64,000 nucleotides of DNA from Escherichia phage JN02. This document shows, in pieces, positions 2,395-43,631 of the stretch; the first letter of the stretch is position 1; the number at the start of each line of letters is the position of its first letter. Below the pieces are notes generated by a model that saw only the letters and a list, made by a program, of their open reading frames with translations, did not search any database and was not told where the DNA came from. The stretch lies in sequence record MT782071.1; one strand, given 5' to 3'. The translations under genes were made by a program, and so were the position numbers.

Positions 2395-2635
2395 CTCGGT
2401 CCCATGATTTGGCCATTAATTCGGACATAAATTCTTCAATGCGCGTTTCTTTAGATGGACTTTCACTATTAGAGACCGCAAGTTTGTAATCTGCAATAGG
2501 ACAGAACATATCAAGGTCCATATTAAGGTCGTCTTTGATTTTTTCTTCTGACACATCTTTATCGTATGTGTACAGATAGCTATCACATGATTCTGATTTA
2601 ATGTAAATTGCTATACTCATCTCAAATTCCTGCAT
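2384..2635 (-). CDS. Hypothetical protein (83 aa; may start at internal Met at 2620)
   Basis: ORF in track; AGGA Shine-Dalgarno 7 nt upstream of the internal ATG. Confidence 0.45.
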   Translation of the reverse strand: MQEFEMSIAIYIKSESCDSYLYTYDKDVSEEKIKDDLNMDLDMFCPIADYKLAVSNSESPSKETRIEEFMSELMAKSWDRDDE

Positions 2636-3108
2636 TCGGTAATAAAACGTTCAACTTCATTATTCTTGGCTTTTATCTTGTCTTTACGTTCCTGTAAACT
2701 ACTTTTAACAAGATTAATAATGATGCCTATAGTACCTCCACCAATAATACCACCAACAACACTTATGATACTAGATGCTAATAAGATAGCAATAATATCA
2801 ACAAAACCGAAAGAACTCACCTTAGTACTGAAAAACCATACCGACGGTACAAATATAATCCATCCTGTTATCCATTGGCACTTATTGAAAAACTTTTCAA
2901 GCTCAGCTTGAGTTGTTCGTATTACTTCATCGATAGGTTGATATCCATTAATGTATCTGTTCACGATAATACCTGCTGGCTGGTCGATTTTAAATTCTTG
3001 ACAAATATGTTTCACTAAGTAGGATGGACATCCTGTCCAATCTACTGAATAGTATGAAATACCTTCATTGCCATCGTCTATATTAGACCAATATGTTTTG
3101 TTAATCAT
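2617..3108 (-). CDS. Hypothetical membrane protein, 163 aa, C-terminus ...ERFITECRNLR
   Basis: ORF in track; hydrophobic helices (FVPSVWFF..., IISVVGGIIGGGTIGIIINL); C-terminal F-I-x-E-C-R motif. Confidence 0.55.
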   Translation of the reverse strand: MINKTYWSNIDDGNEGISYYSVDWTGCPSYLVKHICQEFKIDQPAGIIVNRYINGYQPIDEVIRTTQAELEKFFNKCQWITGWIIFVPSVWFFSTKVSSFGFVDIIAILLASSIISVVGGIIGGGTIGIIINLVKSSLQERKDKIKAKNNEVERFITECRNLR

Positions 3109-7250: not shown

Positions 7251-7815
7251 ATTCTCTACATTCCATAATAAATTGCTCAAGGATTAAATTGTTAGTGAAA
7301 TTAGGACTAACAACCATAGTTTCATAAAGCGCATCAATAGCACTTAAAGCATCAACTCTTTTAAGCAAAGGCTTGCCTTCATACATAGTTTCAGAATCGA
7401 TGATTAACGTAAAGTAATATTTTTTATTATCGACTAGAACTTCTGTATCGATATAAAACATATTAGACCTCAGAAGCTTATCTCTAAAACCATAATAATC
7501 TTCAGAGCGTTCGCTGATATATTCCAATTCAGTGTTTAAACAACAAACAGACCACGTAGGAGCAACGAAATCAGTGAATCTAATATCATGGTCTGCAACT
7601 AGTTTAGCAATAGCTCCGATATCATGAATCATAATACCTGGGGCTAATAAAGATTTTCGGTTATTTGCATATTCAGTTGTCTCATAAGAAGACGACCAGT
7701 ACCATTTACGTCCAGTTGCAACATATCGTAATGAATCAACTAAAGACGTAGGTGGATTTACCTTATTTCGGAACTCTTCGAACATTGAGTCAATATCATT
7801 ATTTTGGTTTCGCAT
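7219..7815 (-). CDS. Hypothetical protein, about 198 aa, containing ...EQFIMECREY... near the C-terminus
   Basis: ORF track 7219..7836; Met at 7815 has GGAG Shine-Dalgarno 6 nt upstream. Confidence 0.5.
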   Translation of the reverse strand: MRNQNNDIDSMFEEFRNKVNPPTSLVDSLRYVATGRKWYWSSSYETTEYANNRKSLLAPGIMIHDIGAIAKLVADHDIRFTDFVAPTWSVCCLNTELEYISERSEDYYGFRDKLLRSNMFYIDTEVLVDNKKYYFTLIIDSETMYEGKPLLKRVDALSAIDALYETMVVSPNFTNNLILEQFIMECREYVKANPVHAK

Positions 7816-9735: not shown

Positions 9736-9751
9736 GGGACCCGAAGGTCCC
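9736..9751 (-). terminator. Terminator-like hairpin (gggacc-cgaa-ggtccc)
   Basis: Perfect 6-bp stem with tetraloop just downstream of ORF 9758..10384; weak T-tract. Confidence 0.35.
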
Positions 9752-9757
9752 CATTCT

Positions 9758-10384
9758 TTACTTACGAGTTTTTGCATACTGAGCAGCGTCAGCAGCCAAA
9801 CGACCTGCCTGACGAAGTTTTTCTTTAATCGCATCGTGAAGTGGTTGAGTATACTTCAAACCTTCGATAGTCAAATAAAGACGATAAAGGTCTGGGGTAT
9901 CAAGGTTGTTGATATGTTGGCCATTGCGAAGAATATTGAATTCACGAACGAGTGAAGATGTATCGGATTCAATATCGCGAACAAGCGAAGATAGTTGTTT
10001 ATATTTTTTTTCCAGGCTAGAAGTATCAAACTTAAGAGCAGGAGCTTTAGGAGTTGCTTTTACTTCAGGCTTAGGCTCAGGTTTTGCTATTGCTTTAGGG
10101 GCCGCAGGTTTAGGAATGGTAGGAGCAGGTTTTACTTTAGGCGAACCAGATTTAGCAGGAACACCACCACTAACAATATCTTTGAATGCTTTAGAAGCTC
10201 TGTAATATTCTTTTTGGCTCGAAGTGTCGATACCGTACATGGCTTGAACGTTTTTGAAAAACTCTGTACTAGTTTTTGTACCAGAAATAGCATCATAAGC
10301 AGCTCGCCATTTCTCTTTTGTCATACGTACACCGGCTTCGGTGATTACTTCCGTTTCGGCTAAAAATTCATTAAAAGTATACAT
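9758..10384 (-). CDS. Candidate capsid-targeted protein, 208 aa, N-terminus MYTFNEFLAE, with Pro/Ala/Lys-rich linker
   Basis: ORF in track; capsid-targeting-like N-terminus; low-complexity linker GSPKVKPAPTIPKPAAPKAIAKPEPKPEVKATPKAP between two domains. Confidence 0.6.
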   Translation of the reverse strand: MYTFNEFLAETEVITEAGVRMTKEKWRAAYDAISGTKTSTEFFKNVQAMYGIDTSSQKEYYRASKAFKDIVSGGVPAKSGSPKVKPAPTIPKPAAPKAIAKPEPKPEVKATPKAPALKFDTSSLEKKYKQLSSLVRDIESDTSSLVREFNILRNGQHINNLDTPDLYRLYLTIEGLKYTQPLHDAIKEKLRQAGRLAADAAQYAKTRK

Positions 10385-10428
10385 CGATGGTCCTTAGAAA
10401 GTAGGTTTATTGTTTACTATATTTATAC

Positions 10429-10458
10429 AAAAAAAAGCCCCAACCTTTCGGAAGGGGC
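10429..10458 (-). terminator. Rho-independent terminator (hairpin followed by T8 on minus strand)
   Basis: gcccc...ggggc stem with inner GAAA-type loop; plus-strand A8 at 10429-10436 is U8 on the minus transcript. Confidence 0.6.
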
Positions 10459-10507
10459 TTTATACCTTGTCGGGGTTTCCACCTACTAGGTAAGTGTTTG
10501 TACGAAA

Positions 10508-10600
10508 CGCCGGGATTTGAACCCGGTTATTAAGTAGTTGACGCTACTCAATATTTTTAAAAGGCCATATCTCGACCATATCCGAACGTTCCGTCAAAAA
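10508..10600 (-). ncRNA. tRNA-like structured RNA candidate (canonical T-arm and 7-bp acceptor stem, non-canonical body)
   Basis: Minus strand has CCGGG-TTCAAAT-CCCGG T-arm and acceptor pairing cggaacg / cgtttcg, but D and anticodon arms do not fold canonically; sits in a 300-bp ORF-free region. Confidence 0.3.
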
Positions 10601-10761
10601 CGCCACTCGGCTTACGGCAAAGATATTTCCTCGAATCGATAATTCGGTGCGCCGTTTCTGCTGTGATGTAAGGGGATATTAACAAAACATAAAGATTTAT
10701 TAAGACCAGTCCTTACTCAGGGAACATCAGTCCGACGACTTGCCGGTAGCGACCCGGCTTC

Positions 10762-11106
10762 TTATTTTGGCATATCATCAATTTGCTCTCGACGCCGACG
10801 CCATAGATTAATCGCTTCATAAACACATTCAGCATTTGGTATATGGCGACAATAGTACAGTGATTCACGTTTCTGGAACCGATGTTGCAATGGGATTTCG
10901 TTTAAAAGGTCTTTACGGTCAAAGTATTCAAAACTAGTTAACCCGGAACGGTTTTTAAGAAACTTCCAATGGCCGAATTCATTTTGGAAATAAACGTAAT
11001 CAGCGTGTTGATATAACGAATTAATCAACCGGTCGGAAATAACTGTATCCTGTTCGTTAAAATAAAACGTTAAATCATGAACTACTAGATAAATATTGCC
11101 TTTCAT
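10762..11106 (-). CDS. Hypothetical protein, 114 aa
   Basis: ORF track uses a TTG start at 11154 that would overlap tRNA-Arg; ATG at 11106 with GAGG Shine-Dalgarno is more plausible. Confidence 0.5.
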   Translation of the reverse strand: MKGNIYLVVHDLTFYFNEQDTVISDRLINSLYQHADYVYFQNEFGHWKFLKNRSGLTSFEYFDRKDLLNEIPLQHRFQKRESLYYCRHIPNAECVYEAINLWRRRREQIDDMPK

Positions 11107-12787: not shown

Positions 12788-13075
12788 TTACAGAAGAGTT
12801 TTTGCAATAATTTTAAGCTGAGCTACAGAAATATGCTTAGCTTTAAACAGTGCAGTCTCTTCAGCAGGAGAGATAACAATAGTAGCGCCATCTTTCTTAG
12901 CAGACCATCCATCCCCTAAGTAAACAGTACCTTTTACTTCTTCGCCGTCAACCAGACTAATCATTGGTTTACCCTCACGTCCTTTATTTGCTTTAATAAC
13001 TTCGGAAGTAAGGGTTGCTTCGGTCAGAGTAGAAACGTTAGCATCAGGTGATATAAATTCTTTATAGGTTTTCAT
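12788..13075 (-). CDS. Internal protein I-like capsid-targeted protein, 95 aa precursor
   Basis: N-terminus MKTYKEFI...; L-T-E at residues 17-19 would give a 76-aa mature protein; position next to 57B matches ipI in T4. Confidence 0.55.
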   Translation of the reverse strand: MKTYKEFISPDANVSTLTEATLTSEVIKANKGREGKPMISLVDGEEVKGTVYLGDGWSAKKDGATIVISPAEETALFKAKHISVAQLKIIAKTLL

Positions 13076-13152: not shown

Positions 13153-13838
<686 letters not shown>

Positions 13839-41719: not shown

Positions 41720-42144
41720 TGTATCTTATCCCTGAATCTTATGAATTGGTACTCGAAAATGTCGAAGCACTTATTCCTGAAGCACAGGGCCGAATCGATG
41801 CATTGTCTTCTGCTCTCGATATTGACGATATAAATACTATTATCGAGAACATGCTTGAAACTGAAACGGATTTAGCTGTTGCAATGGCTTCCATTATTAA
41901 TGAAGAACAGTTAAATGAGTTTATCGTTAAACATGTTTCTTCTCGTGGTGAAGTCACCCGCACTAAAGACCGTAAAACTCGTGAACGTAACGCGTTCCAA
42001 ACAACTGGTCTTTCTAAAGCAAAACGTAGACAAATCGCTCGTAAGGTCGTTAAAGCTAAAAAAGCTAACCCTTCAGGCCAAGTTAAAGGCTTGCGTAAGC
42101 GTAAAAAAGCTCTTAAACGTCGTAAAGCATTAGGATTAAGCTAA
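41719..42144 (+). CDS. 68: Prohead core protein gp68
   Basis: 141 aa as in T4. Confidence 0.85.
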
Positions 42145-42785
42145 TGAATAAACCCGAGTTACTTATTGAAACTTGGGGTCAACCCGGTGAGATTATTGAT
42201 GGCGTTCCAATGTTGGAATCTCATGATGGAAAAGATTCTGGCTTAAAACCAGGGCTTTATATAGAAGGTATTTTTCTTCAGGCAGAGGTTGTTAACCGAA
42301 ATAAACGTTTATATCCTAAACGCGTTTTGGAAAAAGCAGTAAGTGACTATATTAAAGAACAAGTCGAAACCAAACAAGCCCTTGGAGAATTAAACCATCC
42401 ACCTCGTGCAAATGTTGACCCTATGCAAGCCGCTATCATTATTGAAGATATGTGGTGGAAAGGAAACGATGTATATGGACGTGCTAGAATTATTGAAGGC
42501 GACCATGGTCCCGGTGATAAATTAGCTGCTAATATACGAGCTGGTTGGATTCCAGGTGTTTCCTCTCGTGGTCTTGGTTCTTTAACCGACACCAATAAAG
42601 GGTACCGTATCGTGAACGAAGGATTTAAATTAACCGTCGGCGTAGATGCCGTATGGGGACCTTCTGCTCCAGATGCTTGGGTTACTCCTAAACAAATATC
42701 AGAATCAGAAAATTCGGTGGAAATCACCAAAAACAGTGCTGATGAAGCATTTAAAGCTCTCGCAGAGAGTTTAAAAGCATTATAA
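42144..42785 (+). CDS. 21: Prohead core scaffold protease gp21
   Basis: 213 aa; conserved position. Confidence 0.9.
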   Translation: MNKPELLIETWGQPGEIIDGVPMLESHDGKDSGLKPGLYIEGIFLQAEVVNRNKRLYPKRVLEKAVSDYIKEQVETKQALGELNHPPRANVDPMQAAIIIEDMWWKGNDVYGRARIIEGDHGPGDKLAANIRAGWIPGVSSRGLGSLTDTNKGYRIVNEGFKLTVGVDAVWGPSAPDAWVTPKQISESENSVEITKNSADEAFKALAESLKAL

Positions 42786-42818: not shown

Positions 42819-43631
42819 ATGATCAAAGAACAACTTTTGAAAGAAGCTCAGAATATCGAGACTTCAGTTGCTCTTAATAGTGTTTTCGAATCAGTAGAAC
42901 TGTCTCCGGACGTTAAAGCTAATTTCAGCACTGTATTCGAAGCCACCGTTAAGCAGGAAGCAGTCAAACTAGCTGAATCTCATATCAAAGCTATCGCCGA
43001 AAAAGCCGAAGAAGAAGTTGAAAAGGCTAAAGAAGATGCTGAAGAGAAAGCTGATAAAAAATTGGCTGAACAAGCTTCTAAATTCCTGGACCATCTTGCA
43101 AAAGAATGGCTCGCAGAAAACCAAATCGCAGTTGATAAAGGCATTAAAGCTGATTTGTTCGAATCCATGCTTGGTGGTCTGAAAGAACTGTTTGTTGAAC
43201 ATAACGTTGTTGTTCCAGAAGAATCTGTAGATGTTGTAGCAGAAATGGAAGAAGAGCTGGCCGAACATAAAGAAGAAACCGCTCGTTTGTTCGAAGAAGT
43301 TACCAAACGTGATGCATATATCAATTACGTTCAGCGTGAAACCGCTATTAATGAAAGCGTAAAAGACCTGACTGAATCTCAGAAAGAAAAAGTTATTGGC
43401 CTGGTTGAAGGTATGGATTATTCTGACGCATTTGGTACTAAGTTAACTGCTATTGTAGAAATGGTTAAAGGTTCTACTAAAGAAGAAGCCGCTATTACCG
43501 AAAGTATAAATACAGTTGACAATGACGCTGCCGGTCTTAATTTTGTTGCCGAAGCAGTTGACACTACCACAACTCAGGTAGAACAGAATTCTAATGTAAG
43601 TTTATATGCGAAAGTCGCATCTCGTTTCTAA
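42819..43631 (+). CDS. 22: Prohead core scaffold protein gp22
   Basis: 270 aa, highly charged helical. Confidence 0.9.
   Translation: MIKEQLLKEAQNIETSVALNSVFESVELSPDVKANFSTVFEATVKQEAVKLAESHIKAIAEKAEEEVEKAKEDAEEKADKKLAEQASKFLDHLAKEWLAENQIAVDKGIKADLFESMLGGLKELFVEHNVVVPEESVDVVAEMEEELAEHKEETARLFEEVTKRDAYINYVQRETAINESVKDLTESQKEKVIGLVEGMDYSDAFGTKLTAIVEMVKGSTKEEAAITESINTVDNDAAGLNFVAEAVDTTTTQVEQNSNVSLYAKVASRF

Follow-up and report, generated by a model that had tools for sequence, protein, structure and literature searches.

No phage proteins enter the cytoplasm of the host earlier than the internal proteins (Ips). The T4 Ips with their tag (Mullaney and Black 1996) are among the closest known systems to the gene described here. 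The mature T4 Ips number about 1000 molecules in all, lie among the DNA in the head and are ejected into the host (PMC9026906, PMC3012670, PMC12373910). The first 10 residues of IPIII suffice for targeting into the scaffolding core; experiments with IPIII show that positions 4 and 7 matter for targeting, and positions 8 and 10 for cleavage by gp21 (PMC9026906). In the head, the lysines of the Ips lie against the phosphates of the DNA (PMC3012670). Between 2022 and 2025, each of the three T4 Ips proved to be a specific inhibitor of restriction enzymes of the GmrSD type (PMC9391042, PMC12373910): Ip1, Ip2 and Ip3 block type IV enzymes of this type, a different one in each case (PMC12373910), and IPIII, which is required on strain ECOR17, works in the cytoplasm without its tag (PMC9391042). 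Here we describe a gene in a 64,000-nucleotide (nt) stretch of DNA from Escherichia phage JN02 (MT782071.1), referred to as the window. The coding sequence (9758..10384, minus strand, stop codon 9758-9760 included) begins with ATG and specifies a protein of 208 amino acids (aa), with a computed mass of 23.2 kDa and a computed isoelectric point (pI) of 9.6. We consider it probable that the gene encodes a new family of T-even Ip, and there are good grounds for expecting the protein to be head-internal, targeted by its tag and processed.

The tag of the T4 Ips resembles MKTYQEFIAE: position 4 is aromatic, position 7 is Phe, and positions 8-10 read [L/I]-x-E. The N-terminus of the 208-aa protein, MYTFNEFLAE, follows this pattern; it is identical to the tag of T4 IPII and IPIII at 6 of 10 positions, and 3 of the 4 remaining positions are conservative. 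The positions critical in IPIII are kept as F4, F7, L8 and E10, with F4 also found in T4 IPI. With BLOSUM62, the starts of all open reading frames (ORFs) in the window that begin with ATG and span 40 aa or more, 606 in number, were scored against MKTYQEFIAE (checked in the T4 record). MYTFNEFLAE scores 33, compared with a mean of -1.6 (standard deviation 7.5) for the 606 starts and a maximum of 19 for any start that is not ip-like. Only four small classical ip-like ORFs (18-332, 396-656, 1135-1416 and 12788-13075) score higher than the 208-aa protein. The original prediction, made from the DNA alone, had taken this N-terminus for a variant of the capsid targeting sequence, and both the distance from the background and the conservation in most of the family bear this out. 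On these grounds, residues 1-16 (10337..10384, minus) are assigned as the putative capsid targeting sequence and propeptide.

Three [L/I]-x-E motifs are found in the protein, at residues 8-10 (LAE↓T, where the arrow marks the candidate cut), at 14-16 (ITE↓A) and at 186. The L-A-E site at 8-10 is the one originally proposed, and motif comparison adds ITE at 14-16 as a second candidate; ITE↓A has the same context as the site in T4 IPI (...STITE↓ATLTS). Without its first 16 residues, the protein has a computed mass of 21.3 kDa and a pI of about 9.8. The density of sites is low, 1.4 per 100 aa, compared with 5.6 per 100 aa (15 sites) in the gp22 of the window, which fits a protein that is trimmed at the N-terminus and retained, and not a digested scaffold like gp22. 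Also encoded in the window are the prohead protease gp21 at 42144-42785 (Peptidase_S77, E-value 2.5e-107) and the scaffold gp22 at 42819-43631 (T4_CASP, E-value 1.5e-89).

Family alignments give the consensus M-[LKY]-x-[FY]-[NK]-[EDQ]-[FI]-[LI]-x-E for the tag. The second site, [LIV]-x-E-[AS]-G, is present in most family members, and no full-length homologue in the alignments lacks an [L/I]-x-E site. Homologues from Mosig-, Dhaka-, Karam- and Marfavirus and the one from fHe-Yen9-01 retain the tag together with one or more [L/I]-x-E-[A/S/G/T] sites; in EcS1 and Marfa, the N-terminus is shortened and the two cleavage sites are merged into one. Five distant members have an unrelated N-terminal domain (N-domain), and four of them (P0054, P0055, P0058 and P0061) still begin with a tag-like start, for example MLKFNEFLAEG or MNVLSYKDFLNES, and keep one or more cleavage motifs; the exception is P0063, whose start MKISDFAKKY is a poor match. 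Since the likeness is conserved over most of the family, including these four members with an unrelated N-domain, it is not coincidental, and the N-terminal similarity on which the original claim relied is genuine. The tag is the most constant part of the family and, by the alignments, behaves as an independent functional module. P0041, a member of 278 aa from a metagenomic contig, has a 60-residue extension before its tag; the start is probably mis-called, and the true start is likely the internal MINFNEFLAESE.

A close orthologue has been found in virions. Michniewski (2019) examined CsCl-purified virions of vB_Eco_mar005P1 by nano liquid chromatography–tandem mass spectrometry (nanoLC-MS/MS) and detected only five proteins (PMC6563131). 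Four of them are gp18 (tail sheath), gp23 (major capsid protein), gp68 (prohead core) and the packaged ADP-ribosyltransferase Alt; the fifth is the hypothetical protein MAR005P1_00015. Its gene (LR027390, 6284-6910, 627 bp) carries the annotation "confirmed structural protein by MS" and is flanked by the ORF near tRNA-Arg on one side and the e.x genes on the other, and its product is identical to the window protein at 205 of 208 residues (99%). Virion proteomics had been suggested as a check of the original prediction, with absence from virions named as the outcome that would tell against it; such proteomics exists and came out positive, for this 205/208-identical orthologue and not for the protein of the JN02 isolate itself. 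Detection in so shallow a mass spectrometry (MS) run argues for a substantial copy number. The presence of the orthologue in virions is already published, and we found no interpretation of it as a tag-bearing Ip in the literature searched.

An AlphaFold2 model built on an alignment of 30 sequences (mean predicted local distance difference test score (pLDDT) 77) divides the protein behind the tag into two helical domains and a linker. Residues 1-16 have low confidence, with a pLDDT below 50 for most of residues 1-12. The N-domain, residues 17-74 (10163..10336, minus), consists of three helices (23-31, 39-50 and 57-72; pLDDT 84-90, and about 88 over 23-72), and its invariant or near-invariant residues in the alignment include R20, T22, W26, F42, G51, Y60 and A66. 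It is followed by a Pro/Ala/Lys linker of 43 residues (set here at 75-117; 10034..10162, minus), which contains 12 Pro, 9 Ala and 9 Lys and has a net charge of +7. The pLDDT is below 50 at residues 75-105, and neither helix nor strand is predicted anywhere between 73 and 121. The C-terminal domain (C-domain), residues 118-208 (9761..10033, minus), is a helical bundle (helices 122-153, 164-177 and 180-207; pLDDT ~90-97) with a conserved loop, RNGQHINNLDTPDLY, and many positions that are invariant among members with this form of the domain (type A). The three-part layout given in the original prediction, a short domain, a Pro/Ala/Lys linker of about 40 residues and a C-terminal domain, is thus the one found in the model and in the composition. 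Examination of the structure of the C-terminal domain had also been suggested; it shows the helical bundle with a pLDDT of ~95 over 122-207, and the fold matches are only generic.

Over the 30 family members, the sequence identity of the linker is 21-42%, with a P/A/K/V/T fraction of 0.63-0.95, a charge of +3 to +9 and a length of 23-49 residues. The identity of the N-domain among family members ranges from 20 to 81%, and the C-domain has at least two forms, type A (the window protein) and type B (Enterobacter phages such as CIP9). The identities of the two domains are uncoupled: in P0018, the N-domain is 20% and the C-domain 64% identical, and in P0042, the N-domain is 43% and the C-domain 18% identical, the latter C-domain being unrelated. 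The uncoupling therefore points to shuffling across the linker, and the low-complexity sequence may serve as the crossover point. In composition, residues 75-117 resemble the Lys/Ala/Pro-rich tails with which histone H1 (C-terminal domain) and AlgP bind DNA, and the Pro/Ala-rich linkers between domains of pyruvate dehydrogenase E2 and TonB, a likeness of composition only and not of homology; there is a weak compositional match to the E2 linker 6zlm (E-value 4.1). The role of the linker may be DNA contact or that of a passive spacer.

The 208-aa protein matches phrog_2280 ("unknown function") with an E-value of 4.4e-57, residues 1-203 aligning with profile positions 1-178 of 178. Using tblastn, the window-type (type A) gene was found in 138 phage records, about 71 of them at 90% identity or more (Mosigvirus); the remaining matches, at 30-67% identity, include Dhakavirus JS98, EcS1, Serratia CBH8, Kosakonia 305, Yersinia fHe-Yen9-01, Karamvirus PG7 and Pet-CM3-4, Marfa and others. 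In these 138 records, the product is annotated as "hypothetical protein". The family is small: an exhaustive search with its profile through 1.8 billion representative proteins yielded no more than 20 of them, and all traceable members come from T4-like enterobacterial phages. The Ip class is marked by dispensability and polymorphism, and both are seen here: T4 has no homologue of the gene (tblastn and comparison of the locus), and RB69 has a divergent allele. At the same site in RB69, a different gene, ORF149c, starts with MKTYAEFLTEAAKLPSEA and runs by a frameshift into ORF148c. Counting the RB69-type allele, present in 165 phage records, many of them Tequatroviruses, the two alleles together occur in more than 300 phage records of Mosig-, Dhaka-, Karam-, Marfa- and Tequatrovirus.

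The RB69-type allele is the nearest relative at the locus. RB69ORF149c/148c and the intact 188-aa form P0064 share with the window gene the site, a tag (MKTYAEFLTEA), a distantly related N-domain, a short P/A/K linker, an "FDT" motif and a helical C-terminus, and P0064 matches the family profile over its full length (E-value 2e-4). They differ in being so divergent that tblastn with the window protein misses them, and in having a much shorter linker, an imperfect late promoter and, in the RB69 reference record, a frameshift that splits the gene. In that record (NC_004928, 13429-13991, minus), a single gene of some 188 aa seems to be divided between ORF149c (MKTYAEFLTEA...) and ORF148c, which overlap; the split may be a sequencing error or a real pseudogene. 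Tequatrovirus ime09 has two tandem tag-bearing genes at the locus downstream of rnaC (1902-2375 and 2501-3064). One, of 157 aa, starts with MKSYAQFLNEAVLNEA; its N-domain is different, its Pro/Ala/Lys linker short and its C-domain related. The second belongs to the RB69ORF149c type. A copy of a hairpin (GCCCC...GGGGC-U5) stands before each of the two, and this hairpin may mark cassette boundaries for recombination. In RB69, the sequence after the cassette terminator (~13380-13440), GGGCTTTTTTGTATCTAGGCCTTTC, resembles that after the rnaC terminator of T4 (~7300-7345), GGGGCTTTTTGGTATCTAAGCCTTTCC, so that the cassette looks as if it lies between duplicated terminators.

In JN02, the corresponding stem-loop, GCCCC..GAAA..GGGGC with a run of eight U (10429..10461, minus; -21 kcal/mol, z-score -3.6), is located upstream of the gene. 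Its core is identical to that of the hairpin after rnaC in T4 and is also present in RB69, ime09, GADS24 and mar005P1, and the roughly 300 nt upstream of it are ~93% identical to T4 rnaD and rnaC. By this comparison, the hairpin is the predicted conserved intrinsic terminator of the tRNA-rnaD-rnaC unit and would shield the gene from read-through. Straight after it, and 36 nt upstream of the ATG, is an exact match to the T4-type late promoter, TATAAATA (10420-10427, minus); the window contains 19 exact copies of TATAAATA, compared with 7.7 expected. A Shine-Dalgarno sequence, TAAGGA (10391..10396, minus), read from the sequence, places AAGGA 6 nt before the ATG. Neither this nor the late promoter had been noticed in the first reading. 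The order of hairpin and late promoter also precedes the homologues in Enterobacter phage PG7 and coliphage JS98 (both with TATAAATA) and in Klebsiella phage Marfa (CATAAATA), and this layout is conserved in four genera. Downstream of the gene, the hairpin GGGACC-UUCG-GGUCCC (9736..9751, minus) has a poor U tract and an unremarkable z-score of -1.45, and is probably a 3' stabiliser or a weak terminator. Of the description of the gene as bracketed by its own terminator hairpins, the upstream hairpin stands as a real one, but it belongs to the tRNA-rnaD-rnaC unit, and the downstream hairpin, given its weak U tract and z-score, is at most a possible terminator. By this arrangement, the gene is predicted to form a late transcription unit of its own, monocistronic and insulated, right behind the rnaC terminator.

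The gene sits between the rnaC terminator and the genes on the e.8 side, outside the ipI locus and the ipII/ipIII locus (next to e/denV). In T4, where the cassette is absent, the rnaC terminator runs straight into the e.8 promoter. In every context inspected, the gene follows closely on the tRNA cluster, with the e.8/e.6 genes after it. The statement that it lies away from the classical ip positions holds only relative to T4; the site is a conserved locus across several genera. From these comparisons, we conclude that the site downstream of rnaC is a putative third, multi-allelic ip locus of T-even phages, which is absent from T4. No description of this site as an ip locus was found in the literature searched.

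Taken with the T4 Ips, the 208-aa protein has the tag, the gp21 motif, a basic composition, a predicted late promoter in keeping with their late expression, presence in virions (as the orthologue), polymorphism among close relatives, and gp21 and gp22 encoded in the same phage. It differs from them in that the similarity ends after about 25 N-terminal residues and the IPI_T4 domain is absent, in its locus, a third one with rnaC on one side and the e.x genes on the other, and in its build, with two domains that recombine independently on either side of a Pro/Ala/Lys linker of about 40 residues and two tandem candidate cleavage sites. T4 Alt, detected in the same MS run as MAR005P1_00015, is comparable as a larger protein that is packaged in the head, processed by gp21 and injected. 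As a ~70-kDa enzyme whose propeptide is of another kind, Alt differs from the 208-aa protein, in which no enzymatic domain is detectable (Pfam and fold searches).

These data suggest the following course for the protein. The gene would be transcribed late from its own TATAAATA promoter, and the first ~10 residues, MYTFNEFLAE, would bind the gp22-based scaffolding core during prohead assembly. gp21 would cut after Glu10 and/or Glu16, and the basic mature protein (~21-22 kDa, pI ~9.8) would remain in the head among the DNA. The Lys-rich Pro/Ala/Lys linker would probably run along the DNA phosphates and partly hold the protein on the DNA. At infection, the protein would be expelled into the host with the DNA, where the conserved but swappable C-domain, and perhaps the N-domain too, would most likely neutralise a first-line host defence, by analogy with Ip1-3. 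A role directed at the host is suggested by this analogy and by the presence and absence of the gene, the replacement of alleles and the domain shuffling, which are typical of arms-race genes; we offer an anti-defence function in the host as a tentative proposal. More doubtful is its extension, that the third ip locus codes for modular two-domain injected proteins, tethered to DNA by the Pro/Ala/Lys linker, whose shuffled domains are specific inhibitors of different first-line host defences. Possible targets of such inhibitors would be, for example, type IV or other nucleases that attack DNA with arabinosyl- or glucosyl-hydroxymethylcytosine.

Several observations weigh against reading the gene as that of an Ip with such a role. 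The literature speaks of "two Ip loci" in T-even phages (PMC12373910), and the 208-aa gene is in neither; a position in one of the described loci is the one feature of the class that it lacks among those compared, although this position is a habit of the Ip class and not a mechanistic requirement. Position 2 of the tag is Y, where the T4 IPII/IPIII tag has K. Two domains and a linker make it a bigger and more complex protein than is usual among Ips. The virion MS run was shallow and shows only that MAR005P1_00015 co-purifies with virions. No likeness to a known anti-defence protein, a nuclease inhibitor or a DNA-binding fold was found in the sequence and structure searches. The C-domain changes little between genera that probably differ in their DNA modifications, a pattern that suits a protein bound to a conserved structural partner better than a specific inhibitor that evolves fast.

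The last point leads to an internal head protein with a structural or physical job and no host target, an IPIII-like helper of core and prohead assembly and/or a histone-H1-like counter-ion of the DNA. The helical C-domain would then bind the gp22 scaffold, and the Lys-rich linker would neutralise and organise the packaged DNA. There is a precedent in the T4 IPIII mutant, which assembles heads at half the normal rate and has a burst of ~40% of normal, and in the co-purification of the IPs with gp22 (PMC9026906). The JN02 window has no IPIII orthologue of similar size (the other four ORFs with a tag are 86-104 aa long), and the mature size of ~21 kDa matches that of IPIII* (~20 kDa). The linker keeps its composition and charge and not its sequence, the lysines of IPs touch DNA phosphates (PMC3012670), and the C-domain, strongly conserved across genera, resembles many scaffolding proteins in being a generic helical bundle or coiled coil. 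However, T4 and other phages do without the gene, homology to IPIII is restricted to the N-terminus, and IPIII itself acts in the host cytoplasm against a GmrSD variant (PMC9391042, PMC12373910). The C-domains are moreover swapped between close relatives, which is hard to square with a fixed structural partner, and we regard a purely structural job as plausible but unlikely.

As MS gives presence in virions and not position, the protein could also sit outside the head, in the neck, whiskers, tail or baseplate, with the tag likeness as a relic that cassette recombination left behind and that has no part in targeting. Linkers of the Pro/Ala/Lys kind do occur in fibrous and decoration proteins, as do coiled coils, and the tag-coding DNA, GAATTTTTA.CCGAA, is common to the otherwise dissimilar RB69 allele, which is compatible with a recombination site. 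Against such a relic, the tag is kept at the protein level in distant genera with diverged DNA and before unrelated N-domains, and the positions critical for targeting and cleavage are retained. There is also no similarity to any tail, neck or fibre family (Pfam, PHROGs and Foldseek against BFVD), and the neighbours of the gene are accessory genes, not tail or baseplate genes; a location outside the head is very improbable. Even less credit is given to an abundant non-structural late protein that contaminated the virion preparation. A study of Jiaodavirus does warn that many hypothetical proteins in virion MS are contaminants (PMC13119998), and the proteomic run, with five proteins, was shallow; MAR005P1_00015 was nevertheless detected after CsCl banding while most true structural proteins fell below detection, and contamination does not account for the conserved cleavage sites. 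Both a place outside the head and contamination are weakened because they leave the conserved tag unexplained.

If a tag-targeted Ip that inhibits a host defence is indeed encoded here, the arms race between Ip1-3 and GmrSD extends to a new protein architecture and to the RB69-like phages. A packaged, abundant and widespread protein is a candidate determinant of host range, and many of the genera that carry it serve in phage therapy. The modular build points to a way in which phages may exchange cargo domains while the packaging tag stays the same, and this bears on the engineering of T4-type capsids for protein delivery. New are the protein family, the locus and the modular architecture, which is unusual for an Ip; the Ip principle and the presence of the orthologue in virions were already known.

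Searches for function with the 208-aa protein gave little. Pfam returned nothing significant (the sole match, SIX1_SD, is sub-threshold), and a sequence profile compared with PDB chains found nothing below an E-value of 0.19. Foldseek against the PDB gave no match below an E-value of 2.8, with only generic helical-hairpin and coiled-coil folds, and against BFVD it returned the family itself and nothing else. None of the ip4-10 sequences in the supplements of Silas (2025) belongs to this family. The fPS-90 paper contains no proteomics, PMC13232282 deals with LUZ19, and the Jiaodavirus study (PMC13119998) offers no usable connection to the family. Three assignments were considered and rejected. 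A homologue of IPIII is not supported, as BLASTP aligns residues 1-26 only and hhalign gives a probability of 5.6%, again for the N-terminus only. Membership of IPI_T4 (PF11634, the GmrSD inhibitor) was dismissed, there being no match to the Pfam model. A scaffolding or core protein (gp22/T4_CASP, gp67 or gp68) was dismissed likewise, with no Pfam match and the difference in [L/I]-x-E density given above.

Over the ~2 kb around the gene, identity with phages of Mosigvirus (RB69-like T-even), among them GADS24, JS09 and HX01, is 95-98%. The 208-aa ORF is a real gene. Two plus-strand ORFs antisense to it, 9906-10205 (99 aa) and 9995-10363 (122 aa), have no support from homologues and were rejected as artefacts of the repetitive DNA that codes for the linker; their products are both of low complexity, the first rich in Gly, Leu and Ala, the second in Arg, Phe and Ser. 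The non-coding stretch at ~10500-10765 (minus), from an RB69ORF150c-like ORF (10762-11106) to the hairpin, is the part that is ~93% like rnaD/rnaC (species 2/species 1), and it includes a tRNA-like T-arm, CCGGGTTCAAATCCCGG. ARAGORN calls no tRNA in it, and all Rfam families score below threshold there. The Rfam scan of the flanks of the gene found only two tRNAs; a sub-threshold match to NsiR1 over the terminator hairpin was dismissed. A reading of the hairpin as a repeated mobile element was also rejected, since it occurs only once in the window.

The four small tag-bearing ORFs (86-104 aa) are all on the minus strand and have near-canonical tags. That at 12788-13075 is an orthologue of IPI, with a Pfam IPI_T4 domain that starts at residue 20, just after LTE↓A; no Pfam family was found in the other three. 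In the ORF at 1135-1416, a pair of [L/I]-x-E sites (LSE↓S and LNE↓A) stands in tandem, as in the 208-aa protein.

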